From Verrucomicrobia bacterium UBA1211 (GTDB lineage: Bacteria > Verrucomicrobiota > Kiritimatiellia > RFP12 > UBA1067): 15,439 bases of DNA. The position numbers and the translations under genes were made by a program. The notes under the pieces are model-generated. The model worked only from the letters and a program-made list of their open reading frames with translations. It did not search any database and was not told the origin of the DNA. How positions within the stretch are numbered: position 1 is the first letter of the stretch; the number at the start of each line of letters is the position of its first letter. The stretch is from positions 1-15,439 of the forward strand of contig DBXN01000137.1 in NCBI GenBank assembly GCA_002309585.1, in the 5' to 3' direction. Shown piece after piece: positions 1-15,336 of this stretch.

Positions 1-533
1 TCGAGGATGAAGGGCGTACCGTCCTTCCGGATCATCACGTTGGCGGGCTTGACATCGCGGTGCACCACCCCCTGTCCATGCGCGTAGTCCAAGGCCGCGG
101 CGATGGGCGTGAGGATGCGGACCACCTCGGCCTCCGGCAGCCCGGAAGCCTGCGACGGCGAGGGCGCCGCCGCCACATCCGCAAGATACTCGTCCAAAGT
201 TCGGCCGTCGATATAGTCCATCACCAGGAAGGGGTTACCGCCGTTCTCCTCGAAGGCGCGGAGCTGGACGATGTTGGGGTGGACGAGCTTCAGCGAGACC
301 AGCGCCTCCGCCTTCAATTGCGTGTAGGCCCGTTTGTTCTGGACCAGGATACTCGGCAACAGCTTCAGCGCCACGGGACGGTTGTCCAGCTGCGTGTCCT
401 CCGCCAGCCACACTGACCCCATCCCGCCCTGGCCGAGCTGCCGCACCGCGCGGTACCGCCCCGCCAGCAACGTCCCCGCCGCGCTCCCGCCCATCGTCAC
501 ATCATCGTTGATCGTGTTGCTATCCATCGCCAT
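1..533 (-). CDS. Ser/Thr protein kinase (Hanks-type), N-terminal catalytic domain; partial, the 3' end runs beyond the window start
   Basis: Reverse translation reads MAMDSNTINDDVTMGG..GRYRAVRQLGQGGMGSVWLAED..VALKLLP..HRDVKPANVMI... The Gly-rich loop, the VAxK motif and HRDxKPxN are all present. ATG at 531-533 (alternative 525-527) is preceded by a GGAGAAGG SD. It is near-identical to the 5' region of the 12882..14153 kinase gene. Confidence 0.85.
   Translation of the reverse strand, partial: MAMDSNTINDDVTMGGSAAGTLLAGRYRAVRQLGQGGMGSVWLAEDTQLDNRPVALKLLPSILVQNKRAYTQLKAEALVSLKLVHPNIVQLRAFEENGGNPFLVMDYIDGRTLDEYLADVAAAPSPSQASGLPEAEVVRILTPIAAALDYAHGQGVVHRDVKPANVMIRKDGTPFIL
1..533. repeat. Copy A of a ~0.53-kb direct repeat (kinase 5' region). 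Copy B lies at ~13590..14153 in the same orientation.
   Basis: By-eye alignment of 1-533 against 13590-14153 gives roughly 85-90% nt identity, with identical runs over 30 bp (e.g. ggttgtccagctgcgtgtcctccgccagccacac and agctgccgcaccgcgcggtaccgccccgccagca). Confidence 0.75.
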
Positions 534-764: not shown

Positions 765-1919
765 TCATTGCCCGAAGCGCTGCTGGTTGAACTGGTCATA
801 CTGTTTGATCATCGCGGGGGTGACGGAGGAAGGAATGACCTTCACCGCATTCTCCAAATCGGAAACGAGGACCATGGGATCATCCCCCGTCTCCACCCCC
901 CGTCTAAAGGCGGCGAGCCGCGCCTTGCGGACGATACCGACGATATCGCTGCCGGTATAGCCGTCCAGACGCTCCGCCCACACCGAATGGTCGATCTGCG
1001 GTTCGCAGGCGACACCCTTGAACGAACGCTCCAGCATACCCAGACGCGCCTCTCGGTCGGGAAGGCCGATATACAACTTCTCATCGAACCGGCCGGTACG
1101 GAAAACCGCCTCGTCAATCGCCCAAGGTTTGTTGGTCGCCCCGAGGATCAGCAGGATATTGTCGCTCTCCCGGAAACCGCCGACATCGGAGAGAAACTGC
1201 GTCACGATGCGGTTGTCCACCACGGAGGAGCTGGCGGTACGGCGCGGCAGCAGCCCGTCGATCTCGTCCAGAAAGAGAACCGCGACGGGACGCGAAGCCG
1301 CCGTCTTCAGCAGACGGCTCAAGTTCTGCTCGCTCTCGCCGTGCCACTTGGAACGCAACTGCGCGCCGGAGGCGTAGAAGAACGGCGCGGCGATCTCATG
1401 GGCGATGGCCTTGCCGAACATGGTCTTGCCGTTTCCCGGAGGCCCGTAGAGGATCACGCCTCCGCCCGGCTTCAGTTTCATCGCCTTCGCCTTCTCGGGT
1501 TCGCGCATCGGATAGATGATCATCTCCCGGATCGCGGCCTTGGCCTGGGTCATCCCGGCGATGTCGTCAAAGGTCACATCCGGAATCTCAGCAACTTCGA
1601 ATGACTCCCCACCGTTCTCCCCGCCGGCATCCGTCTGAGGCGGGTTGCTGGCCGAAGCGGACTGCGGTCCGCCACCATGCGCGGTGGCGTTATTCCGCTT
1701 CGGCAGTTTCGCGGTTGCGAGCTTCTCGGCGATCTCCAGCCATCCTTCCGCCGTTGTCACATAACTGGCGGCGACCGGTCCCGTCGTCTGCTTCGCCAGC
1801 GCGAAGCAGAACTCCGCCGCCTTGGCGGCATGCAACCGGGCGGCGGGGGCATCACCCGCCTGGATGGCGGCTTCGCACGCCTTCTCATGCTCCGTTTTTT
1901 TATCCGAAAGAAAACTCAT
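765..1919 (-). CDS. AAA+ ATPase of the Vps4/katanin/spastin-like type with an MIT-like N-terminal three-helix bundle
   Basis: Walker A GPPGNGKT, Walker B LFLDEID, second region of homology ATNKPWAIDEAVFRTGRFD. The C-terminal helix IPSSVTPAMIKQYDQFNQQRFGQ resembles the Vps4 C-terminus (..RPSV..DLLK..KFTEDFGQ). The N-terminal ~75 aa is predicted helical and MIT-like. Located 9 bp downstream of the peptidase gene. Confidence 0.85.
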   Translation of the reverse strand: MSFLSDKKTEHEKACEAAIQAGDAPAARLHAAKAAEFCFALAKQTTGPVAASYVTTAEGWLEIAEKLATAKLPKRNNATAHGGGPQSASASNPPQTDAGGENGGESFEVAEIPDVTFDDIAGMTQAKAAIREMIIYPMREPEKAKAMKLKPGGGVILYGPPGNGKTMFGKAIAHEIAAPFFYASGAQLRSKWHGESEQNLSRLLKTAASRPVAVLFLDEIDGLLPRRTASSSVVDNRIVTQFLSDVGGFRESDNILLILGATNKPWAIDEAVFRTGRFDEKLYIGLPDREARLGMLERSFKGVACEPQIDHSVWAERLDGYTGSDIVGIVRKARLAAFRRGVETGDDPMVLVSDLENAVKVIPSSVTPAMIKQYDQFNQQRFGQ

Positions 1920-1928
1920 GGCAGATTC

Positions 1929-3059
1929 CTATTCATGACGGTCCGACAGATCGACCCCGATCGTCTTGAGCAACGCCAAAATCTCCCCCATGCCGATCGC
2001 TTCGGCGGCGGAGGGATTGGCCTGAATAAAGTTGAGGAGCCGTTCGATCGAATGCGGATGGGTTGTCGCGGCCACTCCGCGGATAGACTCGAAAACCGCC
2101 AGCGCAAGTTCCCAGATGATCGTCCCGAGCCCCAGCGTCTCCCGGTATTCGCTGGCGCTCACGACCGAGGAGGCGAACGAATCGGCCTCCCGTTCATGGT
2201 TACGGCTGATCTCGTCATTGAGAGCGGATCCGCAACAGTGCCCCAACGCGAGATGGCCGAATTCGTGGGCCAACACACCGATGACTGTCCCGCAGGCGAG
2301 TTCGACAGTCTTCGTCTTCCACTCCTCAACGGAGAGTACGCCGTTGAGATGACAACTGTTCGCGAAGGTGGCGGCGAGTTCCGATGTCAGGCGTGTACCG
2401 TTCCGCTGAAAGTGCTCCACCATCGCGGCGATCACCCGCTGGAAGGGGACAATCCCGACCCGACCCCCCCACGCCGGATCGTCAACGGCCATTTTCCAGC
2501 CGGTATACGCCGCGGCCATCAGCATGGCGTAACGGACAGCGCCGGAAAAGAGGCAGATCGTGGGGAAGCCCTCAAGCGGATCCATCCGCGCGTAGGCGTT
2601 GACCTGGGCGTGATCCAAAAAACCGCCCAACTCCTTCGAGCGTTCCAGCGAGGTCTCGATGAACTTCAGCTGGAGCCGGGGAACCAATGCCGCATACTGG
2701 CTATTGCTGACGACCGATGGCGAGGAACAGACCATCTCCATCAGTCCTTTGACGAGCTGGGCGTTGAAGGTCCAGACATCCCCGCAAACATCGGGGAAAG
2801 GCGACGGCGCAGAAACCGCCGGCAGGGCAGACACGCCCTCCCCCCGGAACGCGGGAACATCGCCATTTCCGGCACCGTAGTTGGGAAGCGCCTGGCCGAC
2901 GCCACCCGACACCCCGATCCCGGCGCTCCGGCTCTCCGGTCCCTGACCCATGCGCCGCCCAAGATCCTGCTGGCGTTGCGCAAGCCGCTGCTCCAAATCC
3001 CGTTGCCGGTCAGCCAACCGTTTGTTGATGCCGTCCAATGCTGACATAACGTTGCTCAC
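1929..3059 (-). CDS. HExxH zinc-metallopeptidase-like protein (ImmA/IrrE M78-like or M48-like catalytic motif) with an N-terminal coiled-coil/low-complexity region
   Basis: Motif LAHEFGHLALGH, then 14 aa, then NHEREADSFA (an HExxH followed by an ExxA(D/N)xFA third-ligand motif). The track start at 3059 is a GTG that overlaps the upstream stop as GTGA; an in-frame ATG lies at 3045-3047. No signal peptide. Confidence 0.7.
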   Translation of the reverse strand: MSNVMSALDGINKRLADRQRDLEQRLAQRQQDLGRRMGQGPESRSAGIGVSGGVGQALPNYGAGNGDVPAFRGEGVSALPAVSAPSPFPDVCGDVWTFNAQLVKGLMEMVCSSPSVVSNSQYAALVPRLQLKFIETSLERSKELGGFLDHAQVNAYARMDPLEGFPTICLFSGAVRYAMLMAAAYTGWKMAVDDPAWGGRVGIVPFQRVIAAMVEHFQRNGTRLTSELAATFANSCHLNGVLSVEEWKTKTVELACGTVIGVLAHEFGHLALGHCCGSALNDEISRNHEREADSFASSVVSASEYRETLGLGTIIWELALAVFESIRGVAATTHPHSIERLLNFIQANPSAAEAIGMGEILALLKTIGVDLSDRHE

Positions 3060-3694
3060 TTTCCGCCAAGAAGATCTTTCACCCGCTGCTGTCCGGCGGC
3101 GATCCGGTCATCAATGGCCTGGCCGGCCGAGGCGGGCGCCGCCGCGCCGCCGATCTCCGCCGCGACCTGCTGTTCCAGCTCCGACGCCATATCATCGAGC
3201 GACGGGATGTGGTCCTGAAGCGCGCCGTTCGCGCCCGCCATCTCATTCTCGTACATCCGGTTCCAGAAACGGTCGGCGTTCACCTGCTCGCCCAGCATCT
3301 CCTGGGCGGTCCCGAAGACATCCTCGACCCGTTCCGGATCGATCCGGATGATCGCATTGATCTGGCCCAGCGCCTCGGCGAACTGGTTGTCGGACTGCGC
3401 GACCTCCATCTTCGTCAGATACTGCTCGAAGACCCAGCGTTTCTGCTCCAGCTTCATCGCCAGCACCTGCGCCGCGCGAGCCGCGGTCAGCGCACGGTTG
3501 GCCGCCGCCTTCTCGCCGCTCTTCAGCGCCTCGCGCGCCTTCTCCCAACTCTCCTTCGCCTCTTTCTCCAACCGCTTCTGACGGTCGATCACATCCTGCT
3601 TGGCGTTCTCGGCGTCCCGGAACGCATGACGGCGCTCACGCCGCTCCAGACGGCGGCGGGCGGCGGGAAACATGAAATATTTTAAGAATGACAT
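3056..3694 (-). CDS. ESCRT-III/Snf7-like protein (PspA/Vipp1/ESCRT-III superfamily)
   Basis: 212 aa with a basic N-terminus and an acidic C-terminus. The segment IDRQKRLEKEAKESWEKAREALKSGEKAAANRALTAARAAQ follows the CHMP alpha1-alpha2 pattern (LDRExxKLE..IKKAxKxGN..A). The C-terminal amphipathic helix IDDRIAAGQQRVKDLLGGK looks MIM1-like. A strong SD (AAGGAG) lies 6 nt upstream of ATG 3694. Confidence 0.7.
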   Translation of the reverse strand: MSFLKYFMFPAARRRLERRERRHAFRDAENAKQDVIDRQKRLEKEAKESWEKAREALKSGEKAAANRALTAARAAQVLAMKLEQKRWVFEQYLTKMEVAQSDNQFAEALGQINAIIRIDPERVEDVFGTAQEMLGEQVNADRFWNRMYENEMAGANGALQDHIPSLDDMASELEQQVAAEIGGAAAPASAGQAIDDRIAAGQQRVKDLLGGK

Positions 3695-3732: not shown

Positions 3733-4653
3733 TCAGAAATCGGCCAACGGATCGGCGGGGACAGAAGGTTCCCCGGGCCCTTTCTCCGCCTCCGACGGCT
3801 CCGTCAAAGGCACATCCGGAAGCTCGTCCCCAAACGCGGCCAACGCATCGCTGAAGGATCCGTCATCTTCCCGTTCGTGGCGAACGCCGGCTTTGTCGAG
3901 ATCGCCGATCGCCCCGTCGATGTCATCGGCGGTATCGGCGGCATCCTCAACCTCATCCGTCAGTTTATCGATACCCGCCTCGCTGATACCCTTGAGGTTC
4001 ATCGCCACCAGCTCGTTCATGCGGCCCTTCACCTTGGTCAGTACCGTCTCGTTCTTCAGGTAGGCGGCCATCTGACGTTCCAGCGACTGGTATTCGGCGA
4101 GCGCGCTCTTCAACTCCATCTCCAGAATCTTCTTCCGGGCGGGCGGCGCCGACTGATAGAGCTTCTTCTTGGCGACAATCAACCGGTAAAGCTCATCATA
4201 GCGGCGCGCCACCGGCTCGCGTCGAGCCCGATTCTCCTCGATCTGCGCCTCAATCGTCCGCATCGCCTCCTCGGGATCGCGAATCCCGGCGAGCCGTTTC
4301 GCGAGACTGCCCGCCCCTTGCCCGAGCTTCACCGCGAACTCCCCGATCTGTTTGAGGATCGACGCTTTCTTCGCGGCCGGCAGTTTCGCCGCCGCATTCG
4401 GATCCACTGTCTGGCCCGCTTCGTTTCCATCAATCATTTTCAATTCCTCCGTCTTCTCATGAACGCGACTCTCCGGGCTCAACATCCCGCCGGATTTCCA
4501 ACCGTGTGCCGGACACCGCCGGTTACCATTATGCCAGTGAAAGGCGCAGAAGACACTTCCGCACCCTTCACTCTCACACCGACCGGCGACCGCGTACCGA
4601 TTGGGCAGGACGCGGCCGCAGACCGAACAGACTTGTGGCTCAGAACCGGCCAT
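3733..4653 (-). CDS. Zinc-ribbon / Snf7 (ESCRT-III) fusion protein
   Basis: N-terminal zinc ribbon CSVCG..C.SEGCG..C..H...C.H. The core ARKKILEMELKSALAEYQSLERQMAAYLKNETVLTKVKG...VAMNLKGISEAGIDKLTDEVEDAADTADDIDGAIGDLD aligns with the CHMP4/Snf7 alpha2-alpha4 pattern (KNKRAALQALKRKKRYEKQL...KAMK..DIDKVDELMQDI.DQQE). The C-terminal tail ELPDVPLTEP...PSVP is MIM2-like. SD GAGGTG; the stop of the upstream gene is 1 nt away. Confidence 0.75.
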   Translation of the reverse strand: MAGSEPQVCSVCGRVLPNRYAVAGRCESEGCGSVFCAFHWHNGNRRCPAHGWKSGGMLSPESRVHEKTEELKMIDGNEAGQTVDPNAAAKLPAAKKASILKQIGEFAVKLGQGAGSLAKRLAGIRDPEEAMRTIEAQIEENRARREPVARRYDELYRLIVAKKKLYQSAPPARKKILEMELKSALAEYQSLERQMAAYLKNETVLTKVKGRMNELVAMNLKGISEAGIDKLTDEVEDAADTADDIDGAIGDLDKAGVRHEREDDGSFSDALAAFGDELPDVPLTEPSEAEKGPGEPSVPADPLADF

Positions 4654-4654
4654 C

Positions 4655-5764
4655 TCACCTCACACGCGTGGACGCTTTGATGAACATCACAACCAGCGCC
4701 AGCGCGGCCAGAATGGCCAGCGGCACCACCACCGCCAAAACCGGTTTCGCGCGGAGCGCAGGGAAAAGGGTGCAGATCCGCTCCCACCACCCGTACTCCG
4801 GCGTGTAGGGTTCGGAGATGCAGATCGTGTCGCTCCAGAGCTGTTCGCGCGTGGAGGCCTTTTCGATGCAGGCCTGGATCTCGGCCGTCAGCGTATACTT
4901 CTTTTCGGTCGGAAGCGTCGATACGGGCGTCACCGACAAATCCCGGAGCGATCCGATCAGCAGGGCATCCGCCTGGTCGGGCTTGTCACGGAGCGCGAGC
5001 CGAGCCTCGCCCGGCGTGGCGATGTCGAGATTGACCGTCGTCAGGTCTGTACGGGCAACGGCGTCCCGCACGATATCGGCGGCATAATGGTCCCGATCGC
5101 CCGCGAAGGGCAGGAAGGCGACCCGTTTCACACCCGCCAGTTTCGGCGAACCTTTAATCGAGGCGATGATGGCCTCACGGAGTTTCCCCTGCATGATGTT
5201 CCGCAGCGAGACGGGGATGTCGGTCAACCCTTTCTCCGAGGCGGAGGCATCGGGAATATAGTACCGCTTGGCGAAGATACCGCCCCAGAGATGGCGCTTT
5301 TCCGCGATGGAGGTCGCATGCAGCTCGATCTCAAAGAAGACACACCGCTCGTTGCGCGAGGTATTCCGGATGAATGCGGAGAGGAGAACCTGCGCCGACT
5401 TCAGTTTTCCGAATCGGTCCACCGTGGCGGGATCCAGAATGTCCTCTTTGCGGGCATCCCAGGTGATCTCCTTGAGAATCTCGTTCCACAGCGGATCCTC
5501 CTTACCCTCGACGCAGGTCTTGCCAGCGCGGGTCAACGCGATCTTCAACTGCCCCGCGATCCACCCGTCCGTATCGCCGGCGACCGGAAGGATCGCCACG
5601 GCGGCGGCCGCCGGGATCCCCGCCGTTTTCAAGGCCGCCTCGGCATCCTGAACCGCGCCCTGCACCGCCTGCCTGAAATGCTCATCGACAGGAACCGTCT
5701 GCGCCGCAGCCATCCACGCGACCGCCGCAACCGCCATCCATATCCACCGTTTTTTCATCGTCAT
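4655..5764 (-). CDS. Exported protein with two tandem CsgG/LpoB-like (TolB-N-like) modules and a C-terminal transmembrane anchor
   Basis: Signal peptide MTMKKRWIWMAVAAVAWMAAAQ (start at 5764 or 5758 chosen over the track's 5812; SD AAGGAGG directly upstream). Modules AILPVAGDTDGWIAGQLKIALTRAGKTCV...ILKEITWDARKEDILDPATVDRFGKLKSAQVLLSA and VAFLPFAGDRDHYAADIVRDAVARTDLTTVNLD...ALLIGSL match the CsgG-family pattern. C-terminal hydrophobic helix PVLAVVVPLAILAALALVVMFI. Paralog of 5788..6972. Confidence 0.65.
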   Translation of the reverse strand: MTMKKRWIWMAVAAVAWMAAAQTVPVDEHFRQAVQGAVQDAEAALKTAGIPAAAAVAILPVAGDTDGWIAGQLKIALTRAGKTCVEGKEDPLWNEILKEITWDARKEDILDPATVDRFGKLKSAQVLLSAFIRNTSRNERCVFFEIELHATSIAEKRHLWGGIFAKRYYIPDASASEKGLTDIPVSLRNIMQGKLREAIIASIKGSPKLAGVKRVAFLPFAGDRDHYAADIVRDAVARTDLTTVNLDIATPGEARLALRDKPDQADALLIGSLRDLSVTPVSTLPTEKKYTLTAEIQACIEKASTREQLWSDTICISEPYTPEYGWWERICTLFPALRAKPVLAVVVPLAILAALALVVMFIKASTRVR

Positions 5765-5787
5765 CTCTCCCTCCTTTTCCAGAAAAC

Positions 5788-6972
5788 TCATTTGACGTAA
5801 CCGAGATCCCATTCGGGATGTTTGACCATCAGCGTGTTCAGAAAACCGTCCGAGAATTGTTCCGCATCAAAAACGATCCGGAACGTGAACGTTCCCGTCT
5901 TCGCATCCTGGCGGATCAGCCGCGCCGAGCGCACGCCCTTTTCCGCATTCACCGTCTGGCAGAATTCGGCCTGCAACTTCAACTCATCCGCCGACACCAC
6001 CTTCTCACGAAGCTTCAGCTCAACCGTCGAAACCTTCAACCCGACCTGTTCCGGCGTGAAAGAGGCTTTCACCCACTCGCCCGCCTCGGCGGTCAGCGCG
6101 TTCGCCAGATTCTTCTCCGCGGCGGCCTCGCCCAACCCGCGCGCGCCACTCTTCGTCACCGTCTTCTCAGCGAGCGTACGGGGATTGCCTCCCAAGATCC
6201 GGGTCTTCAGCGAGAGGGAACCGGTCAGTTTGTACCACTCGCCCGTGCGGTCAAACACCTCGCGGGACGCGGAGACTGTAACCTCGACATCGGGAGGGAA
6301 CGGGCTGTCCACGACATAACCCGCCTTGGCCAATGCGTTGCGGATGGCTGACGCGGCATCATCGATCACAACCGCCGCATTTCCCTTCTCGCAACGGACC
6401 GCAACCCGGATCCGGGAAGGATCCGCCATACCCTGCGCCGTCTCACCGATCGTCTTGATCGGCGCGAATTTACCGTCGATCACATTGGCGCCCCACACAT
6501 ACTGCTTGGTCTTGATGGCATAGGCCAACAGATTCAGTTCCGCCACCGTCTCCTTGGGACCGTTCTTGACGATCTCAACGGCGCTTTCGAGGAGGATCTG
6601 CGTGGACTTCAGCTCACCCAACGTGTCGATCGTCGCCGGATCGACGCTCCTCAGGATCGCCTGGCGCTCGTCCCATTTGATCTCGGAGAGAATCCGCTTG
6701 AACCGCGCGTCCTTCTCCTCGTCATTGGCGGTCACGCACGTCTTTCCGGCGCGGGTCAGCGCCTGGATCAGAAGACCCTCGAAATAACCTTCCTGATCAC
6801 CCTTGACCGGAAGGACCGTGATCGCCTTCCCGTCCAACACGGAAACGGACCGGATCTCCGACTCCACCGTCCCGGCGAGTTGCCGTAACGCCGCGCGCTC
6901 CTTTTGGTCAAACGCCAGCAGCGTCAACGGGGCGAGAAAAACCAGCATCAACCCTTTTGCCATTGCCTTCAT
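5788..6972 (-). CDS. Exported protein with CsgG/LpoB-like modules (paralog of 4655..5764)
   Basis: Signal peptide MKAMAKGLMLVFLAPLTLLA. Modules ITVLPVKGDQEGYFEGLLIQALTRAGKTCV...FKRILSEIKWDERQAILRSVDPATIDTLGELKSTQILLESAV are near-parallel to the downstream paralog. The ATG abuts the stop of the upstream lipoprotein gene (TAAATG). Confidence 0.65.
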   Translation of the reverse strand: MKAMAKGLMLVFLAPLTLLAFDQKERAALRQLAGTVESEIRSVSVLDGKAITVLPVKGDQEGYFEGLLIQALTRAGKTCVTANDEEKDARFKRILSEIKWDERQAILRSVDPATIDTLGELKSTQILLESAVEIVKNGPKETVAELNLLAYAIKTKQYVWGANVIDGKFAPIKTIGETAQGMADPSRIRVAVRCEKGNAAVVIDDAASAIRNALAKAGYVVDSPFPPDVEVTVSASREVFDRTGEWYKLTGSLSLKTRILGGNPRTLAEKTVTKSGARGLGEAAAEKNLANALTAEAGEWVKASFTPEQVGLKVSTVELKLREKVVSADELKLQAEFCQTVNAEKGVRSARLIRQDAKTGTFTFRIVFDAEQFSDGFLNTLMVKHPEWDLGYVK

Positions 6973-7554
6973 TTATTTCCTTCCTTTCACGTTTTGATCC
7001 AACCAATCCGCAATCGCGCAGGCCAAAGGCGCAACCAAGACCTTCTCTGCATCGGCGCGGCCCAATTTGCGGGGCCCCTGCACGACAAAACGTTTGTCTA
7101 CCGTCTCTGTCCCGTCCGCAGCGGCAAACGCGATCCGTGCGTCAACCTGCCCATCGCAAACGAACCACTCGTCCAGCCTGGCCTTCACGGAGGAGGACGC
7201 GGAGAGAGTCAACCCGGCATAGGGCACGTTTCCGTCAATGAAACGATACCCGCGTTTCGTCAGCTCCTCACGGAGCCGGACGGCGATATCCGCCGCAAAT
7301 GTCGCTCCCGTCGCCCCGCTCGCCGCCACGCTGACCGTCACGGTATCGGTCACGGGTTTCGGCTGTTCCTGAACCGGCGCGGACTCGGCGACCGGCGCGG
7401 GAACGGGTTCAGCAACCGGCGCGGGCGCTTGAACCGCCGGAGACTCCTGGACCACCACAACCTCCACCGGTATCGGCCGCTGCGTGACGCATCCCGAAAA
7501 CACAACCGCCGAAAACGCGGCTACCGCCGTCAATAGACCATTCACCTTCTTCAT
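6973..7554 (-). CDS. Lipoprotein with a Pro/Ala-rich linker and a C-terminal alpha/beta domain
   Basis: Start chosen at MKKVNGLLTAVAAFSAVVFSGC (lipobox VFSGC; ATG 7552-7554; AAGGA ~10 nt upstream) rather than the track's 7761. Linker PAVQAPAPVAEPVPAPVAESAPVQEQPKP. The C-terminal segment FAADIAVRLREELTKRGYRFIDG resembles the CsgG/LpoB-like module of its neighbours. Confidence 0.65.
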   Translation of the reverse strand: MKKVNGLLTAVAAFSAVVFSGCVTQRPIPVEVVVVQESPAVQAPAPVAEPVPAPVAESAPVQEQPKPVTDTVTVSVAASGATGATFAADIAVRLREELTKRGYRFIDGNVPYAGLTLSASSSVKARLDEWFVCDGQVDARIAFAAADGTETVDKRFVVQGPRKLGRADAEKVLVAPLACAIADWLDQNVKGRK

Positions 7555-7570
7555 TTCATAATCCTTTCGT

Positions 7571-8989
7571 TTACTCTTTACGCTGATGATAACGTCCGGC
7601 TCTGTACGGAACGCCAGCCACCTCAACCGACATTCCCGGTACGATCTTTCGCCCAGAAACCAAGAAACACTTTCCATTCCAAACCCAGTCACATCCCCCG
7701 CACGGAACTTTTCGGCTGACAATGGCGACAACCTGTTCGTCCAACCCGTCATCACGGACAAGCGTGAAACCGGAAATCAGGCCGTCGTCACAGATGAAAA
7801 GTTCCAACGTGAATCCCACAACCCCCTCCGGATAATTCGGAGCCTTCGCGCCAAAAGTCAGGTGTGAGACACCCCGGGGAATAACCATCCCGCCCGGGCC
7901 GACCTCATTCCCCTCCACCTGGACACCCCAGGTGGACGGCTCCCCTTCCATTCCGTCAAAGATCCGCAGTCTTCTCCCATCAGAGACCGTGAGCCTGAAG
8001 TGGCGGCGGGAAAGACACATCGATCGGCTCTTATCCATCTGATGACATTCACGGTCAAACACCCGGACCACGTAATCACAGGTGTCGTGACGGCCGCAGA
8101 CCATTGTCTCGTCGGAGCCCAACGCCCACAGTTGGATCATTTTCCCCGCACCCGTCAACGTCAGTCGGGGGGCGCCCCCCTCAAGGTCGACCGCCAACTG
8201 ATGCGTCACCGCCCGCGACTGCTCAACCCGCGGATCCCGCAGATTGATCCCGCTCACGGCCGGCGAATGGTACTGGAGCAAACTCGCGCCCGCCCCGTTC
8301 ACTTCCACCTTCGTATCGATAGTGATGCTGTTTGGGCTGGCGTGATCCAGCACCCGAACGGGGAAAACCGCGCTGAACACATCCGGATCATCCATCCCGT
8401 CCCGTACGCAGAAGAAGCGCACCGTCAACTCAACGGTTCCCGCAACCTTCGGACAGACATTCAGAGGGAAAGTCAACCGCTCCGTGGTGGGCCGGTAACC
8501 CAGCGGATGGCGCTGCACCTCATTCGGCCCGTTGAAAAGCGCCACCGTCACATCGGCATAGAGATCCTCCACCGCCTGGAACACAATCTTGACCGGCGAT
8601 GACCACCCCTTCCACATGGTTTCTGGGAACGTCACCGTCGCACCGAAGGGCATTCCATCCGGGATTTCCACCGGCGGCGCCACCGACGCGCCGAAGGGCG
8701 GATACCCCGTCATCCCGCCGAACGGTGCGATCGGATCAAGCGGCCGCAACGGCGGCAGGTTCGCGGGAGCCGCCGGGTTGAACCCGGAGGGCGCTCCCGC
8801 AGGAGGAGCCGCGGGTTGCGGACACGCGCGTTGCGCGACATCCGGCACGGGCGCGGGGGCCGGCGCGGGCACAGCGACGGGCTCCGGCTCGCAGAGCCGC
8901 CCCGCCGCCGGGCCGCAATTCTCGCAAAAGGTGCCGACCTCGCCCAGCAACCCGCAAAGGGGACATTTGACTTCCGCCATGCGAACCAT
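7571..8989 (-). CDS. Zinc-ribbon / Pro-rich linker / beta-rich middle domain / C-terminal FHA domain protein
   Basis: N-terminus CPLCG...CENCG. FHA-like region GRHDTCDYVV..SRRHFRLTVSDGRRLRIFDGMEGEPSTWGVQVEGNEV (GR...SRxH...D..StnGt.vng pattern). The SD AGGAAGGA abuts ATG 8989, so the in-frame ATG at 8980 (MAEVKCPLCG) may be the true start. Confidence 0.75.
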   Translation of the reverse strand: MVRMAEVKCPLCGLLGEVGTFCENCGPAAGRLCEPEPVAVPAPAPAPVPDVAQRACPQPAAPPAGAPSGFNPAAPANLPPLRPLDPIAPFGGMTGYPPFGASVAPPVEIPDGMPFGATVTFPETMWKGWSSPVKIVFQAVEDLYADVTVALFNGPNEVQRHPLGYRPTTERLTFPLNVCPKVAGTVELTVRFFCVRDGMDDPDVFSAVFPVRVLDHASPNSITIDTKVEVNGAGASLLQYHSPAVSGINLRDPRVEQSRAVTHQLAVDLEGGAPRLTLTGAGKMIQLWALGSDETMVCGRHDTCDYVVRVFDRECHQMDKSRSMCLSRRHFRLTVSDGRRLRIFDGMEGEPSTWGVQVEGNEVGPGGMVIPRGVSHLTFGAKAPNYPEGVVGFTLELFICDDGLISGFTLVRDDGLDEQVVAIVSRKVPCGGCDWVWNGKCFLVSGRKIVPGMSVEVAGVPYRAGRYHQRKE

Positions 8990-8996
8990 ATCCTTC

Positions 8997-11198
8997 CTAC
9001 TTCACGAGGTTGATTGAAGGCGGCGGAGGAGGCGGGGGCGTCTGCGTCTGATTGATCACGTTCACCGGACGCTCCACCGCGCGGGCGGCGATATCATGAA
9101 GCATCCGCATCGTCTCCTCATCATGGGCGACCCGCTGGTCAGTCATGCGCTTCATCTCTTCGACAAGCTTGTCATGCTGGGCGACCTCGGCCGCGGCTTG
9201 CGCGGAAGCCGCCTGGGCTTCCGCCTGAGCCTTGGCCGCGAGAGCCTGCGCGGCAGTCGCCGACCGTCCCGCCTCCCGGGCCAGAAGCTGCTCCGCCGTC
9301 ATCCCCTTCTCCGCCTCAAGCCGCGCCTTCTCCAACTCCTGCTCCTGCTGGAACCGCGCCAGTTCCATCAGTTGCCGCCGCTGTTCCGGGTCCTTCTCCA
9401 GCGCAGCCATCTCCACCGGGCTGAGGCCCTTAATCACCGTTGCAAGGCTCTCCCGTTCCTTGGCGTCCAACTCCTGAAGCCGCGCGAGATTCTTGAGCTG
9501 GTTCTCCATCCCCTCCTGTGCGATCTCCTGGGCGGTCCGGGTTTCATAGTTTTTGACGTCGATCCCGGTTTTCGCGACCGTCGCGTCGGCTTGGGCATCC
9601 TTGATCCGATCGGAACGGTGGATGTCTCCGATGCCCGACTGGTGCTCAGCGTCTTTCCGTTCTTCATCCCGCAACACGTCACTGACCGCGCTCTTCCCCT
9701 GCGCGGTGGCGAGCGACTCGGCGATCTCATGTTCCCGGATACGGCTGTCCTTCTCGAACCGATGGTCAAGCTCGCGGCGTTCCCGCTCAAACTGGTGCTC
9801 AAGCTCCGCAAATTCACGATCATGTTCCCGCGACAGCTTCGCCAGCTCCTCCTCCGCTCCCTTGGCATCGATTTGCCCATCGGCGGCCATCCGCGCGATC
9901 TTCAGCTCGACCTCGCGGGAGAGATCGGAAAGTCCCTTCTCCTGCGCCAGTTGCTTGATGTACTCCTCGGAATCCTGGGCGCGCCGGGCCGCCTCGCGCT
10001 TCCGCCGCTCCTCCAGATCCGCCTGATCCCGTTCGGAATCCGCCGTAATGACCAGTTCACGGTAACGCTCCGCCTCGGACTCCGCGCGCTGCGTCAGCTT
10101 ATGCTCGCGACTCTCGCGCTCCTCGTCAAGGATGTGCTCATGCAGTTTCTTATCATATTCCAGCTGACGGCGCTTTGCGTCCAGCTCGCCGTACCGCTTA
10201 CGCATCTCCTCGTATTCGGCGCTGACGAAATCGACATATCCCACCCGCACCAGCTCAAGGCCGGAGCGTTTCAGCAGATCCTTGAGCGCGCGCCCGATCG
10301 CATCCTCAAACCGGGGTCTGCGTTCCGGATCTTTCACCAGATCTTCGATCTTCGACTGCAGGCAGAGATCCTTCACCGCAGCCGAAGCCTCGGACAGCAG
10401 CCACGTCCCGATATCTTCCGCGAAAAGTCGGTTCGCCCGGTCCTGCCCCGTGCCGTCCGTCCCGGCATCCGGCTGCCCCGCGCCGCCCGACGCCTGAACA
10501 CCCCGTTCCGATTTCATCACATTGGCGAGGAACGCGTTCGCCTCACCCGGATTGAAACGGATCGTCACCTCCGCGATGACCTTGACCGGAAGCTCCTCGG
10601 CAGTCCTCATTCCCGGGAAATCCACCCGAAAAACGCAGTCGCCTGAATCGACCATCACCACACTGTGCGGCGGCGGATTGCCGAACCAGTTGATGGTCCG
10701 GAGCGTCCCCTCCGGGTTGTGCCGCCCAGGCCCCAAAATCGCCGCCTTCTTCCCGGCATCCAGAAGGATCGCCACCGTCCCCTCCTGGATTTTGAGTCCG
10801 CCCTTGGCGATGCCCGTCACGTCGGAAAGCTCAATCCGCTGGGCGAAAACGCCCGGATCGCGGTCCCAGACCCCGCCGGCGAGATTCGGCCGCTCTTCGG
10901 GATGAAGCGGATAGTTGCAGTGCGGGCAGAAGCGGGAATCGTTCCCGACCCATGCGTGGCAGGAGGGGCACTTCACCCAGCCGTTCGGCGCCCCGTGTCC
11001 GCATTTGGAGCAGAACCGCGCCTTCTTGGAGACCGAATGCCCGCAAATCCCCCAGCCCTTCTGGGCGAGCACGGATTCCTTGTTCCATCGCGACGCGCCA
11101 AGCAGCAGCGTCTTCGCCTCATCCAGCTTCGCACCCGTGAGCGCCTGCCCCGTCTTCAAATCAACAATCGCCTCGCACGTATCATGAAAGAGTCCCAT
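8997..11198 (-). CDS. Double zinc-ribbon / SPFH (band-7) domain / long flotillin-like coiled-coil protein with a poly-Pro C-terminus
   Basis: N-terminus CSKCG..CPSCH..CPHC. SPFH-like segments IQEGTVAILLDAGKKAAILGPGRHNP...VDFPGMRTAEELPVKVIAEVTIRFNPGE and RALKDLLKRSGLELVRVGYVDFVSAEYEEMRK. Then ~400 aa of charged coiled coil with flotillin-like EA repeats (AKAQAEAQAASAQAAAEVAQ), ending TPPPPPPPS. SD AGGAGAA upstream. Confidence 0.7.
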   Translation of the reverse strand: MGLFHDTCEAIVDLKTGQALTGAKLDEAKTLLLGASRWNKESVLAQKGWGICGHSVSKKARFCSKCGHGAPNGWVKCPSCHAWVGNDSRFCPHCNYPLHPEERPNLAGGVWDRDPGVFAQRIELSDVTGIAKGGLKIQEGTVAILLDAGKKAAILGPGRHNPEGTLRTINWFGNPPPHSVVMVDSGDCVFRVDFPGMRTAEELPVKVIAEVTIRFNPGEANAFLANVMKSERGVQASGGAGQPDAGTDGTGQDRANRLFAEDIGTWLLSEASAAVKDLCLQSKIEDLVKDPERRPRFEDAIGRALKDLLKRSGLELVRVGYVDFVSAEYEEMRKRYGELDAKRRQLEYDKKLHEHILDEERESREHKLTQRAESEAERYRELVITADSERDQADLEERRKREAARRAQDSEEYIKQLAQEKGLSDLSREVELKIARMAADGQIDAKGAEEELAKLSREHDREFAELEHQFERERRELDHRFEKDSRIREHEIAESLATAQGKSAVSDVLRDEERKDAEHQSGIGDIHRSDRIKDAQADATVAKTGIDVKNYETRTAQEIAQEGMENQLKNLARLQELDAKERESLATVIKGLSPVEMAALEKDPEQRRQLMELARFQQEQELEKARLEAEKGMTAEQLLAREAGRSATAAQALAAKAQAEAQAASAQAAAEVAQHDKLVEEMKRMTDQRVAHDEETMRMLHDIAARAVERPVNVINQTQTPPPPPPPSINLVK

Positions 11199-11212: not shown

Positions 11213-11569
11213 TTACTGATGTTGGTCATTTCCCGTTAAAGTGTGTTCCGTGCACTTCCGCACGCCCCGTCGCGTCCAGCAGTCGAAGCAGATCGGTTTC
11301 CCGCATCCCTCCTCCGTGCATCCCTGCCGAAGCGACCCGTTCGACCGGTAGAACGTCCCGCATACGCTACAGACGCCCCCTTCGGCCGCGGTCCGTTTAC
11401 TCCGTTCCAAATACCCGTCAAGATCGCTCTTCGCCACACGATACAGCTTACCCAGCCGCGCCGCCGGCAGCTCCCCGCTCCGGACCAGCCTGTAAATGAG
11501 CTGATAGGTGACACCCAGCATCTCCGCCACCTCCTCAAGGCTCATGTATCCCGTCTCTTTCCCATCCAT
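11213..11569 (-). CDS. Excisionase/MerR-type HTH DNA-binding protein with a C-terminal zinc ribbon (putative regulator of the cluster)
   Basis: MSLEEVAEMLGVTYQLIYRLVRSGELPAARLGKLYRVAKSDLDGYL matches the excisionase-family HTH. C-terminal zinc ribbon CSVCG...GCTEEGCG..C..C...C. Perfect SD AGGAGG lies 5 nt upstream of ATG 11569. It is the first gene after a promoter-like region. Confidence 0.8.
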   Translation of the reverse strand: MDGKETGYMSLEEVAEMLGVTYQLIYRLVRSGELPAARLGKLYRVAKSDLDGYLERSKRTAAEGGVCSVCGTFYRSNGSLRQGCTEEGCGKPICFDCWTRRGVRKCTEHTLTGNDQHQ

Positions 11570-11703: not shown

Positions 11704-12708
11704 TCACACCGAGTGTTCCATATACACAACCCCCTCACCACCCCCTCGCCCAACCTGGTTACCACCCCCTTGAGGGGTTGTAACATACACCGTCCGCCCC
11801 CCCTCATTCCCCCGTGCAATCGCGGCCGCGATGTAATTGAGCCCCAACAGCTCGCCGCGCCGCGGCGGCTCATCCGGATCGGCCATCCGCGAAAGGACCA
11901 GCAACCGTTTCTGAGCGAAGAGTTGCGGCTCGACCCCATGCGGCCGGTATGCCAAATCCAAAAAAGTCGGCGCGAGCCGGATCATCGGTACGCCATCCGT
12001 TTCCGACAACGTCTTGAACACCATTCGCTCGCCCGGCGAGAAGAAGGTGGAAATGTAGAGATACCCCTTCTCCACCGCGCCGCGGCGGCACACCGCGACC
12101 ACCCGCGGTAACGCCGCCTCCGGCACCTTCCGCGAAATGCGGAGCGACACCAGACGTCCCTTTTCCAGCAGGTCACAGTTCCCCACCGCGCGCCAAAGAT
12201 CATCCTCCCCCGCCTCCGGCACGGCAAATGGCTCGACCACATGCATCAGTGATCGGTCCCCATGCATCAACCACCATTTGAGCGGGTTGTTTCGAATGTA
12301 GGCATCCACCGCACGGTTCATGCGTTCCGATGTGCAGATGAGATCGTGGTAGCCCGCCTCCCAAATGCCCGGCGCACGCCCGGCAATGTGGTAGTGGGAA
12401 AACTGCTTGAAACGACCGACGAACGCGCCGATCTTCTTCACGGCATCAGCGCACCCCGCCGGCCAAGTGAAACGGAGATGCGCATGGTCGGGCATGACCG
12501 TCCAGGCACGAAGGGTGATGAATCCCGCGAAATGACCCGCTGCTTCGAGAAGGTCACGCTTCACGATCCCGCCCGCCTCCGAAAGCGCCACGCCATCGTG
12601 ATCCACACGGCCAAACAGCGGGCGGCGCGGTTCGAGGCAGATCGTCACAAACATCGATCCCCCGCGCGCATAGTCATACCCGCTGAATCTCCGGTGTGTC
12701 TTGTGCAT
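11704..12708 (-). CDS. REP-associated tyrosine transposase (RAYT / IS200-like Y1 HuH transposase) with a C-terminal extension
   Basis: MHKTHRRFSGYDYARGGSMFVTICLEPRRPLF (RAYT N-terminal signature), HuH motif MPDHAHLRF, catalytic Tyr motif AVDAYIRNNPLKW. Start placed at ATG 12706-12708. The 59 codons upstream of it in the track ORF are encoded by the tandem repeat array and are judged non-coding. The 3' boundary is uncertain; a core of ~165 aa is followed by ~170 aa of unknown function. Confidence 0.8.
   Translation of the reverse strand: MHKTHRRFSGYDYARGGSMFVTICLEPRRPLFGRVDHDGVALSEAGGIVKRDLLEAAGHFAGFITLRAWTVMPDHAHLRFTWPAGCADAVKKIGAFVGRFKQFSHYHIAGRAPGIWEAGYHDLICTSERMNRAVDAYIRNNPLKWWLMHGDRSLMHVVEPFAVPEAGEDDLWRAVGNCDLLEKGRLVSLRISRKVPEAALPRVVAVCRRGAVEKGYLYISTFFSPGERMVFKTLSETDGVPMIRLAPTFLDLAYRPHGVEPQLFAQKRLLVLSRMADPDEPPRRGELLGLNYIAAAIARGNEGGRTVYVTTPQGGGNQVGRGGGEGVVYMEHSV
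11765..11780. repeat. Small palindrome cccccttgaggggttg, related in reverse orientation to the 11673-11699 REP-like element
   Basis: cccct-tg-agggg with a flanking ggttg. It approximates the reverse complement of the first palindrome (caacccccttgaagggttg). It lies inside the 3' end of the RAYT ORF. Confidence 0.35.
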
Positions 12709-12740
12709 CACCCACGCGCCCTTTTCCCACTGCCGTTGTT

Positions 12741-12881
12741 CCAACCCGCGCGCACCCCCCCGCGCCCAACCCGCGCGCAACCCCCTCGCACCCAACCCGC
12801 GCGCAACCCCCTCGCGCCCAACCTGCGCGCAACCCCCTCGCGGGGCCCAACCTGCGCGCAACCCCCTCGCGGGGTTGCGCG
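12741..12881. repeat. Tandem array of about five 26-bp REP-like units (cccaaccYgcgcgcaaccccctcgcR). The last copy forms an 11-bp perfect-stem palindrome (12855-12881).
   Basis: Copies at 12741-12764 (degenerate), 12765-12790, 12791-12816, 12817-12845 and 12846-12881. Last copy cgcgcaacccc-ctcgc-ggggttgcgcg. The array begins 1 nt after the kinase stop codon (12882-12884). There are no unique spacers, so it is not CRISPR. Confidence 0.7.
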
Positions 12882-15328: not shown

Positions 15329-15336
15329 TTTCAAAC

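Follow-up and report, generated by a model that had tools for sequence, protein, structure and literature searches.

The analysed window, a stretch of 15,439 nucleotides from a gut/environmental member of the Kiritimatiellia, carries an operon on the minus strand that leads from a gene for a DNA-binding protein to a gene for an AAA+ ATPase, with the start of a kinase gene directly downstream. In the order of transcription, the genes are as follows.

11213..11569, minus strand: first operon gene, HTH_17/excisionase-type DNA-binding domain (Pfam HTH_17, E 2.8e-16) plus a Cys/His zinc domain
8997..11198, minus strand: 733-aa protein with double zinc ribbon (Pfam Zn_Ribbon_1, DZR), SPFH/Band_7 domain (30.7 bits, above cutoff) and long coiled coil
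7571..8989, minus strand: 472-aa zinc-ribbon and FHA-domain protein (Pfam FHA in 9/10 orthologues, best E 3.7e-8)
6973..7554, minus strand: probable lipoprotein with the start MKKVNG... and the lipobox FSGC, read off the sequence
4655..6972, minus strand: two paralogous exported or membrane-anchored proteins of 385 and 394 aa (signal-peptide-like N-termini, mutual cross-matches)
3733..4653, minus strand: 306-aa protein (ZnCC), N-terminal Cys/His zinc domain and helical region, conserved C-terminal F..LA.F motif
3056..3694, minus strand: 212-aa Snf7/ESCRT-III family protein, proposed substrate of the ATPase (Pfam Snf7, PDB profile search, hhalign)
1929..3059, minus strand: HExxH metallopeptidase, Lit/U49- or M48-like (Pfam Peptidase_U49 23.8 bits against a cutoff of 23.9, M48 21.2 bits; NCBIfam and PADLOC Lit)
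765..1919, minus strand: 384-aa single-cassette classical AAA+ ATPase with MIT-fold N-domain, linker, AAA cassette, lid and C-terminal helix
1..533, minus strand: Ser/Thr protein kinase, start only, running off the window

Promoter-like sites were located at 11671-11602, ahead of the HTH_17 gene. The Cys/His zinc domain of this first gene is common to the 306-aa protein, and the zinc-domain part of the ZnCC profile matched the C-terminal half of the HTH_17 protein in many loci. The FHA model scored 18.4 bits, below its cutoff, on the window copy of the 472-aa protein, and neither Pfam nor NCBIfam assigned a family to the two exported paralogues. The N-terminus of the kinase at 1..533 is nearly identical to that of the kinase at 12882-14153, and in many loci the ATPase gene is followed by a kinase gene. 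Beside the operon, the window also contains an IS200/Y1-like ORF and a DUF4143 ATPase.

The ATPase ORF (765-1919) starts with ATG, has an AGGA-like site 7-8 nt 5' of the start and is separated from the stop of the preceding gene by 9 nt. When 5.8 billion proteins were searched by word index, 811 of the 8000 candidates that were scored matched at E<=1e-10; the best 120 of these were full-length with 62-100% identity, except for one truncated copy with 87% coverage, and 56 loci came from species-representative genomes. The ORF is thus a real gene and not a chance ORF. Pfam identified it as AAA (E 9e-34) with AAA_lid_3, and AlphaFold2 modelled it with a mean pLDDT of 81.7.

Domain architecture of the ATPase

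The ATPase was divided into four parts.

1704..1919, minus strand: N-terminal three-helix bundle with MIT fold, aa 1-72 (AlphaFold2)
1599..1703, minus strand: low-complexity linker of variable length, aa 73-107 (pLDDT <50 at 77-105; gap-rich, unconserved alignment block)
837..1598, minus strand: AAA cassette and lid, aa 108-361 (invariant alignment columns; motif table against references)
774..818, minus strand: C-terminal helix, aa 368-382 (AlphaFold2 helix after the lid; conserved motif)

A preliminary description made from the sequence letters had called the protein a Vps4-like ATPase, and its account of the ORF, motifs, N-domain and C-terminal helix was confirmed as an observation. It had placed a three-helix bundle of about 75 residues in the position of an MIT domain, and the structure prediction that it proposed bore this out: the N-terminal 72 residues form helices at 2-20, 24-44 and 48-69 (pLDDT about 90-97), and the model superposes on the MIT domains of VPS4A/B and yeast Vps4 with TM of about 0.7-0.76, its best fold match being specifically the MIT domain of Vps4. 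The N-domain therefore has the asymmetric three-helix bundle and flexible linker of the MIT fold, with residues 77-105 predicted to be disordered. The two profile searches proposed at the same time, with Pfam MIT PF04212 and Vps4_C PF09336, left the ATPase unmatched (PF04212 at E<=0.1). None of 21 family N-domains matched PF04212 at E<=10, and in hhalign the N-domain aligned in register with five MIT references, but without significance (probability 0.7%). The N-domain HMM detected no second MIT-like protein in 63 loci.

The motor itself is a single classical AAA cassette with intact Walker A and B, aromatic pore loop 1 and sensor-1. Across 38 aligned homologues, Walker A GPPGxGKT (K165; GPPGNGKT in this copy), the Walker B residues D218/E219 within DEID, sensor-1 N263, pore loop 1 SKWHGES (KWHG at 191-194), the PW motif P265/W266 and the second-region-of-homology (SRH) arginines R274/R277 are invariant, as is the first SRH residue, F273 (F273RTGRFDE). 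The claim that Walker A/B and SRH are canonical stood for the Walker motifs; the SRH of the family, FRTGRFD, is canonical in the sense of Cdc48, PAN and FtsH, whose RxGR form it has, and not in the sense of Vps4, katanin and spastin. The two-residue SRH deletion that brings the arginine fingers together in Vps4, CdvC, katanin, spastin and Msp1 is absent from the family.

The PW motif and C-terminal helix had also been likened to Vps4, katanin and spastin. The PW motif is indeed common to CdvC and Vps4. The predicted helix is present, with a conserved IPSSVTP..Y..F...RFG motif that begins ahead of it at aa 362, and is not specific to Vps4: the C-terminal segment aligned to Msm0858, VAT, AFG2 and p97 D2, its alignments to archaeal Vps4 and katanin being weaker, so that Cdc48-type D2 domains fit at least equally well. 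A reading of the C-terminal RFG as a proteasome-activator motif was dropped because the terminus varies among homologues; PVC bacteria are also not known to have 20S proteasomes.

The Snf7-family neighbour and its linkage to the ATPase

The gene for the 212-aa protein is located two genes upstream of the ATPase gene in the window, with the metallopeptidase gene between them. Pfam Snf7 PF03357 matched 33 of the 34 members of its family (best E 1.5e-7), and the window copy scored 23.5 bits, below the cutoff of 27.3. The five best PDB matches of the family profile were yeast Snf7 and Heimdallarchaeal ESCRT-IIIB, and hhalign against five eukaryotic ESCRT-III references, which all match PF03357 (the first at E<=1e-52), gave a probability of 70.5% (E 3.9e-5). 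One homologue is labelled 'Snf7 family protein' at NCBI, and Pfam PspA_IM30 matched no member of the family. With the Snf7 profile and solved ESCRT-III cores matched in register, sequence comparison assigns the 212-aa protein to the Snf7 family. Its C-terminus carries a candidate MIT-interacting motif, which follows an Ala/Gly-rich variable linker.

3059..3115, minus strand: Snf7 C-terminal helix, aa 194-212, consensus IDxRIxAGQxRVKxLLEGK (G201, R204 and L209 invariant; Q202, G211 and K212 conserved at >=90%)

The 306-aa protein is probably a divergent second ESCRT-III-like subunit. A PDB search with its family profile returned the Snf7 core as the top match (E 0.17, in register), Pfam Snf7 weakly matched 5 of 30 family members, and hhalign against the ESCRT-III references gave E 0.003 with a probability of 10% over 144 columns; hhalign between the 306-aa and 212-aa families found no detectable homology.

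The preliminary description had regarded the Snf7-like gene beside the ATPase as its key feature, and both the family assignment and the linkage supported it. Among 32 well-flanked loci from Kiritimatiellia, Lentisphaerae and Verrucomicrobia, the Snf7 gene accompanies the ATPase in 28, the ZnCC gene in 26, where it often abuts the ATPase gene, and the SPFH/zinc-ribbon gene in 19. The ATPase and the Snf7 protein diverge in step across loci (r = 0.95), and the core components vary in identity in a correlated way from locus to locus, as a module inherited as a unit would be expected to do. The metallopeptidase, by comparison, is a variable cargo gene: U49 peptidases occur in 12/32 loci, here inserted between the Snf7 and ATPase genes, and C14, S8, M4, C1 or PrsW peptidases take the same place in other genomes.

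The peptidases raise two other explanations. The ATPase could be a Cdc48-like unfoldase of general type that serves protein quality control or regulated proteolysis, with a TPR-like adaptor head, and feeds the neighbouring peptidases (Lit/U49-like here; C14 caspase, S8 subtilisin, M4, C1 and PrsW elsewhere) while Snf7 is a mere scaffold or neighbour. We consider this unlikely, as the peptidases vary in family and are often missing whereas Snf7 and ZnCC are constant, the ATPase co-evolves with Snf7, it has neither a Cdc48-type N-domain nor a second cassette, and the top fold match of its N-domain is specifically Vps4 MIT.

Alternatively, the locus could be a conflict or anti-phage (abortive infection) island in which the ATPase, kinases, HTH protein and protease 'effectors' act together with ESCRT-III-like proteins as membrane-directed effectors or sensors. 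The Lit-like and caspase-like peptidases, their variability as cargo, an HTH protein related to MADS1, the matches to PADLOC IetA and Lit models and the IS200/Y1-like ORF and DUF4143 ATPase beside the operon would all fit such an island. Nevertheless, PADLOC matched no known defence system, only the generic IetA/TRIP13 and Lit models, and the ATPase scored 93.5 bits on IetA/IteA against a cutoff of 510, where the single-cassette references Vps4, spastin, katanin, CdvC, PAN, FtsH, Msp1 and PSMC5 reach 96-131 bits. The core is found in >50 PVC species with the co-varying identities of a jointly inherited module, it adjoins housekeeping genes at locus L063, and its exported and lipoprotein components are atypical for defence islands. 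A defence island is therefore quite unlikely; a defence role and ESCRT-like mechanics are compatible and not mutually exclusive.

Lineage of the motor

The closest solved relatives of the AAA cassette are Cdc48-type D2 domains, including mycobacterial Msm0858. On NCBIfam models, the ATPase scored 203 bits for CDC48 TIGR01243 (cutoff 803), 190 for CdvC NF041006 (cutoff 650), 182 for PAN (cutoff 500) and 149 for FtsH (cutoff 600); the CDC48, CdvC and PAN models cannot discriminate the lineage of the cassette because even bona fide katanin obtains a better score from the CDC48 model than from the CdvC one. An exhaustive representative search returned mainly multi-cassette Cdc48-like proteins, since cassette scores add up, and cluster look-ups yielded almost no names.

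We compared the family with Vps4, VPS4B, spastin, katanin, CdvC, p97, PAN, FtsH, Msp1 and PSMC5 references, which were validated by profiles (CdvC 699 bits, p97 818, PAN 642 and FtsH 1170, all above cutoff). In a neighbour-joining tree of Scoredist distances with 200 bootstraps, which holds no euryarchaeal Vps4 sequences and leaves the deep nodes unresolved, the ATPase family was monophyletic (99%), fell outside the katanin/spastin/Vps4 group (87%) and joined bacterial multi-AAA proteins that are uncharacterised; support for it as sister of the meiotic clade was only 26%. The FtsH or proteasomal placement that the preliminary description had named as contrary evidence was not obtained, the FtsH+PAN clade excluding the family with 87% support, and Pfam found neither the M41 protease domain and TM helices of FtsH nor the coiled coil and OB domain of PAN. 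The tandem D1-D2 arrangement and double-psi-barrel N-domain of Cdc48 are likewise absent, as the ATPase has one cassette and a helical N-domain. The term Vps4-like thus holds for the MIT-fold head beside a Snf7 gene and probably fails for the lineage: judged by the RxGR SRH and this rough tree, the ATPase is probably not a Vps4 orthologue and appears to form a separate bacterial clade.

These results bear on a further explanation, that a true Vps4 orthologue was horizontally acquired from archaea along with ESCRT-III and later diverged. The MIT-AAA architecture beside Snf7, the presence of the SPFH, FHA and kinase companions known from euryarchaeal ESCRT loci, a PW motif and KW.GES pore loop that also occur in CdvC and Vps4, and the CdvC NCBIfam model, which spans the AAA part end to end, would agree with such a transfer, and Ravi et al. 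infer one from archaea to bacteria for a different bacterial MIT-Vps4-like family (PMC11237479). Against it speak the SRH without the deletion, the position of the family in a tree that holds no euryarchaeal Vps4, and CDC48 model and structure scores that equal or exceed those of CdvC and Vps4, and we regard it as very unlikely.

Proposed mechanism and comparison with known systems

Taken together, we favour, at a probability of roughly 60%, the reading that the ATPase fills in bacteria the functional place of Vps4/CdvC, with a motor from another AAA lineage, one related to Cdc48-type D2 domains; it would probably act on bacterial ESCRT-III in the manner of Vps4 without being a Vps4 orthologue. 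In this mechanism, the ATPase would be a hexameric, substrate-threading classical AAA+ unfoldase, whose MIT-fold N-domain on its flexible linker would recruit the motor to the conserved Snf7 C-terminal tail and perhaps also dock on the tail of ZnCC. Powered by ATP hydrolysis, the motor would then draw subunits through the KWHG pore loops and in this way take apart or remodel a polymer of ESCRT-III type at the cytoplasmic membrane, in a system that would include an SPFH scaffold and FHA/Ser-Thr-kinase control. Its role may lie in membrane repair, remodelling or vesicle formation.

The gene content, as predicted here, echoes archaeal ESCRT loci (TACK CdvB/CdvC; euryarchaeal Main, Halo_FHA and Meth_adaptin; Makarova et al. 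2024, PMC10936438). Common to both are the MIT-fold head, flexible linker, one AAA cassette and C-terminal helix without a beta-domain, the Snf7-family gene upstream of the ATPase gene, and companions with SPFH, coiled coil and zinc ribbon, FHA or Ser/Thr kinase domains. In contrast to CdvC/Vps4, the PVC cassette lacks the SRH deletion and does not group with either, and its MIT domain is undetectable by sequence; the PVC loci showed no wH/ESCRT-II-like, CdvA or adaptin-like genes, and the operon adds exported proteins, an HTH protein with a Cys/His domain and variable peptidases in a bacterial host. With eukaryotic Vps4 and ESCRT-III (Snf7/CHMP), the system has in common the MIT fold, the KW.GES pore loop, the PW motif and a partner that matches Pfam Snf7 and yeast Snf7 structures. 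It differs in the missing beta-domain, Vta1 site and Vps4_C match, in an SRH of RxGR rather than RR, and in a Snf7 tail motif that is neither canonical MIM1 nor MIM2.

According to recent reviews, a Vps4-like ATPase 'appears absent in bacteria' (PMC7619361), and the disassembly of bacterial ESCRT-III-superfamily polymers has been described as an open question (PMC8281802). No description of this operon was found in the literature searched. The pairing of an MIT-fold AAA+ head with a genuine Snf7/ESCRT-III gene, which reviews confine to archaea and eukaryotes, is here found in Kiritimatiellia, in a PVC group long discussed for eukaryote-like membrane features. The operon is thus a concrete and widespread bacterial candidate for a Snf7-type protein tied to an MIT-fold AAA+ unfoldase, and two small soluble proteins make the bacterial ESCRT-III/ATPase question directly testable. 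As the motor probably lies outside the Vps4 lineage, it also speaks to the question of an ancient or a convergent origin of the ESCRT-III/AAA partnership. More tentatively, and at somewhat short of even odds, the ESCRT-III machine of PVC bacteria (Kiritimatiellia, Lentisphaerae, Verrucomicrobia) may be complete, driven by ATP and inherited vertically. It would consist of a Snf7-type polymer, perhaps with two kinds of subunit, an MIT-AAA disassemblase dedicated to it, a scaffold of SPFH type and control by FHA and kinase proteins; it would have arisen apart from archaeal Vps4 or be an ancient sister to it. If so, ATP-powered ESCRT-III remodelling would not be an archaeal/eukaryotic invention, and MIT-fold AAA motors would have been paired with ESCRT-III either before bacteria and archaea diverged or on two separate occasions.

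Other bacterial systems resemble the operon in part. Bacterial 'MIT+Vps4-AAA-ATPase' genes such as Opitutus terrae Oter_1429 pair with a TPR+6TM protein, whose gene is reported to have displaced snf7, and two-cassette Cdc48-like AAA+ ATPases are associated with PspA (Ravi et al. 2024, PMC11237479). The Oter_1429 type likewise has a bacterial MIT-type AAA+ ATPase, occurs in the PVC group and is inferred to act near the membrane; here, the partner is of the Snf7 family and no TPR-6TM gene is present, a distinction drawn from the published description. The PspA-associated ATPases differ in that the PVC partner is Snf7-type, not PspA-type. In Proteobacteria, PspA-PspF also combines an ESCRT-III-superfamily protein with an AAA+ ATPase and DNA-binding regulator. 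There, the AAA+ protein is PspF, a sigma-54 enhancer-binding ATPase, which PspA inhibits and which is not known to remodel PspA. The PVC ATPase, unlike PspF, is a classical-clade AAA protein in which Pfam finds no Sigma54 or HTH domain.

The PVC cassette, its RxGR SRH and its C-terminal helix resemble the D2 domain of Cdc48/p97/VAT most closely, without the D1 cassette or double-psi-barrel N-domain of those proteins. Msm0858 (PDB 5e7p) gave the highest single-stretch PDB score for the ATPase (211 bits) and the best match to the lid and C-terminus (54.8 bits over two stretches). In the neighbour-joining tree, P0251 and P0258, tandem-AAA relatives that are uncharacterised, cluster near the family; the PVC ATPase differs from all of these in its one cassette and MIT-fold head. 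For the small helical proteins encoded beside distant relatives (L064, L066, L068), single-sequence Pfam and PDB searches gave nothing significant. One tandem-AAA relative adjoins a Band_7 and zinc-ribbon gene and helical proteins of ~200 aa.

Gene order and linkage

The window belongs to a PVC bacterium and has a G+C content of ~62%. Its real genes all occupy the minus strand; long ORFs on the opposite strand are antisense artefacts that the high G+C produces. A closely packed run of genes extends from a promoter-like site at ~11671–11602 down to the gene of a 384-aa single-cassette AAA+ ATPase.

Genes of the run and flanking kinase genes (positions, strand, product)
11213–11569 (−), HTH_17 and Cys/His domain protein, first gene in the run
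8997–11198 (−), double zinc-ribbon/SPFH/coiled-coil protein
7571–8989 (−), zinc-ribbon/FHA protein
6973–7554 (−), probable lipoprotein
4655–5812 and 5788–6972 (−), two exported paralogues, signal-peptide-like N-termini
3733–4653 (−), 306-aa Cys/His-domain helical protein
3056–3694 (−), 212-aa protein assigned to the Snf7 family
1929–3059 (−), HExxH peptidase
765–1919 (−), the ATPase
1–533 (−), Ser/Thr kinase gene, start ~533, extending beyond the window
12882–14153 (−), second Ser/Thr kinase gene

The two kinases flanking the operon have near-identical N-termini (…TINDDVTMGG…LLAGRYRAVRQLGQGGMGSVWLAEDTQLDNRPVA…), and kinases encoded behind the ATPase in other genomes carry fused FGE-sulfatase-type domains. 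Also upstream of the operon are a 393-aa ORF (11704–12885, minus strand), with a weak IS200/Y1-transposase match and a repetitive Arg/Gly-rich N-terminus, and an AAA_14/DUF4143 ATPase (14150–15334, minus strand). At locus L045 a homologue of the 393-aa ORF (71% identity) lies within the cluster, between the Snf7 and ATPase genes. The lipoprotein and the exported paralogues, one of which also has a C-terminal membrane anchor, were assigned to no family by Pfam or NCBIfam, and are exported components within an otherwise cytoplasmic ESCRT-like operon.

The ATPase ORF is plainly a real gene and lies exactly where the preliminary description placed it; its ATG is 9 nt past the peptidase stop and preceded by an AGGA-like site. 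A word-indexed protein search found 811 proteins at E<=1e-10 among 8000 candidates scored; the best 120 of the 811 were full-length homologues (62–100% identity), bar one truncated copy, and the closest named homologue among the matches listed was 'Kiritimatiellae bacterium' (90% identity). Scanning one genome per species gave 56 loci, spread over Kiritimatiellia, Lentisphaerae/Victivallales and Verrucomicrobia (Puniceicoccaceae among them). In the 32 non-redundant loci whose flanks were long enough, the window genes had homologues as follows: Snf7 28/32, zinc-domain helical protein 26/32, kinase 20/32, SPFH 19/32, HTH 16/32 and U49 peptidase only 12/32. The Snf7 gene was usually immediately 5' of the ATPase gene, and in one subgroup of loci the 306-aa gene was directly 3' of it. 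Identities relative to the window copies were correlated between the ATPase and Snf7 (r = 0.95, n = 37) and between the ATPase and the 306-aa protein (r = 0.85), and the three behave as a single inherited module. Even for a 45%-identical ATPase relative from an unrelated metagenome, a Snf7-family gene (92 bits) was directly upstream.

The peptidase slot varied by genome, containing a Lit/U49-like, caspase C14, subtilisin S8, M4, papain C1 or PrsW peptidase or a PDDEXK nuclease, a pattern that is cargo-like or effector-like. The hydrolase between or beside Snf7 and ATPase differs between the window (1929–3059, minus strand) and loci L001, L003, L061, L062 and L063, and one papain C1 variant is a papain C1, lectin and U49 fusion. 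A conflict or defence island, with which such variable cargo would agree, is an unlikely description of the locus, and one compatible with an ESCRT-like role.

Snf7-family and probable ESCRT-III-like neighbours

The Snf7-like neighbour proposed earlier was borne out for the 212-aa protein. Pfam Snf7 matched 33 of its 34 homologues (best E 1.5e-7), PspA_IM30 matched 0/34, and the top five PDB matches to the profile of this family were yeast Snf7 and Heimdallarchaeal ESCRT-IIIB, in register. Alignment with validated eukaryotic ESCRT-III references by hhalign gave a probability of 70.5% (E 3.9e-5, 137 columns), and one homologue carries the NCBI name 'Snf7 family protein'. These profile matches make the 212-aa protein a member of the Snf7 family. 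Its C-terminus is a strongly conserved helix, IDxRIxAGQxRVKxLLEGK, preceded by a variable Ala/Gly-rich stretch; the helix is located where ESCRT-III proteins bear MIT-interacting motifs, but the motif is non-canonical.

The 306-aa protein is probably a second ESCRT-III-like subunit behind a zinc domain, with signs weaker than those for the 212-aa protein but consistent: Snf7 was the top PDB hit of its family (E 0.17), Pfam Snf7 weakly matched 5 of 30 members, and hhalign against the ESCRT-III references gave E 0.003 in full register. Its C-terminus has a conserved F..LA.F motif. In L034:7654–8256, L039:8648–9271 and L043:7790–9277, loci without a BLAST hit to the 306-aa protein, its helical region was picked up by the family HMM in proteins of roughly 200 aa, the zinc domain being absent; the helical module therefore occurs alone, at ESCRT-III size. 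The zinc domain, CxxCG..LPNR..G.C...C..FC..H....N..C..H, is common to the N-terminus of the 306-aa protein and the HTH_17 protein's C-terminal half, so a putative transcription factor and a putative ESCRT-III-like subunit may compete for a single partner, or associate, a pairing that recalls PspA sequestering PspF. A zinc-domain helical gene followed by an ATPase start (48% identity) is present on L057, a contig of 1871 bp from the bin of a Methanomicrobiales archaeon, and a short contig of another non-PVC bin, Candidatus Kapaibacterium (L032), carries a further family member; these reflect either mis-binning or transfer.

Head and motor of the ATPase

In a 38-sequence alignment, the Walker A Lys and Walker B DE were invariant, as were the SKWHGES pore loop, the Asn of sensor-1, the PW pair and F273RTGRFDE, including both arginines. 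Invariant positions of the N-domain include H11, E12, C15, E16, H30, K33, F37, L41, W60 and L67, and residues ~73–107 form a low-complexity linker of varying length. An AlphaFold2 model built from this alignment had a mean pLDDT of 81.7 and showed helices at 2–20, 24–44 and 48–69 (pLDDT ~90–97), disorder at 77–105, and then a standard AAA fold, lid and last helix (368–382); the N-domain modelled by itself reproduced the three helices (pLDDT 89.9). These models support the N-terminal three-helix bundle, but its likeness to MIT did not extend to sequence: Pfam MIT matched neither the ATPase at E<=0.1 nor any of 21 N-domains at E<=10, and hhalign against MIT references was insignificant (probability 0.7%), with the alignment in register helix for helix. 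At the sequence level the head is not an MIT domain. In P0246, a 696-aa relative whose AAA cassette matches at 64% identity over residues 104–383, an unrelated 413-residue N-terminal extension replaces the MIT-fold head.

Family models scored the ATPase at 203 bits for CDC48, 190 for CdvC (alignment reaching the C-terminus), 182 for PAN and 149 for FtsH, but cannot decide the motor class because in controls they poorly separated even genuine katanin. The HMM of the PVC ATPase family scored VAT D2 at 220 bits, p97 D2 196, p97 D1 192, katanin, spastin and Vps4 184, CdvC 177 and PAN 162. The 50 best matches in the full-model structural search were all p97/Cdc48, and the top single-stretch PDB score was 211 bits, with D2 of mycobacterial Msm0858. 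The lid and C-terminal helix alone matched Msm0858 in two stretches at 54.8 bits (D2 C-terminus 28.4), and scored 38.9 with VAT, 37 with AFG2, 29.6 with p97, 28.7 with katanin and 24–27 with archaeal Vps4. The helix described as Vps4-type is therefore a feature common to Cdc48-type D2 domains.

The clearest signal on motor class, among the tests made, was the SRH motif table, in which a two-residue deletion (R--RF) is common to Vps4, VPS4B, CdvC, spastin, katanin and Msp1, and the PVC family has R-T-G-R-F, as in Cdc48, PAN and FtsH. By contrast, the N.PW motif and SKW.GES pore loop are common to the family, Vps4 and CdvC. A neighbour-joining tree on Scoredist distances (260 columns, 200 bootstraps) recovered the PVC family at 99% support, outside the Cdc48-D1 group (76–79%), FtsH+PAN (87%) and katanin/spastin/Vps4 (87%), and placed it beside uncharacterised multi-cassette AAA proteins of bacteria, behind a split with 68% support; its position as sister of the Vps4-containing clade had only 26% support. 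Motif table, scores, tree and N-domain models thus gave neither a firm Cdc48, FtsH or proteasomal placement with a different N-terminal fold nor membership of the Vps4 clade, and by these tests the motor is not Vps4. A true Vps4, horizontally acquired and since diverged, would fit the common pore loop but not the SRH, and is improbable. A general Cdc48-like unfoldase working for the adjacent peptidases would sit poorly with the changing peptidases, and is unlikely.

Proposed role and related systems

Building on the observed architecture, motifs, fold, family assignments and linkage, the best-supported reading (probability about 0.6) is that the ATPase serves a bacterial Snf7 polymer as Vps4/CdvC serves archaeal and eukaryotic ESCRT-III. 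We infer binding, polymerisation, disassembly and physiology as follows: the head would bring the motor to the tails of ESCRT-III-type subunits, the motor would form a hexamer and pull subunits through the KWHG pore, and threading would drive turnover of the polymer at the membrane, where the SPFH protein would be a scaffold, with phospho-control provided by the FHA protein and the kinases. The operon would represent ESCRT-III/Vps4 logic within Bacteria, built from a different AAA lineage and with other accessory genes.

Archaeal ESCRT loci are surrounded by the same kinds of companion genes (PMC10936438), and resemble the PVC operon in SPFH, FHA and kinase companions. Bacterial MIT+Vps4-like ATPases have been reported, including one in the PVC bacterium Opitutus, with snf7 'displaced' in their loci by a TPR-6TM gene, and PspA and divergent Snf7 genes are associated with a two-cassette AAA+ ATPase (Ravi et al. 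2024, PMC11237479). In a literature coverage that was not exhaustive, we found no publication on a PVC operon that pairs Snf7 with a single-cassette ATPase bearing an MIT fold.

Two relatives at 34–36% identity, P0251 (L066:3223–8115) and P0258 (L064), have two AAA cassettes each. Single-sequence searches with the small helical neighbours at these loci gave nothing significant. At L066 the tandem-AAA gene comes after one for a Band_7 and zinc-ribbon protein and three for small helical proteins; one of these three, of 197 aa, looks ESCRT-III-like, and its tail, DDEISRIKKMLDSGEGI, is similar to the tail of the PVC Snf7 protein. There are hints here of a wider bacterial class that may pair ESCRT-III-like proteins with this AAA clade.
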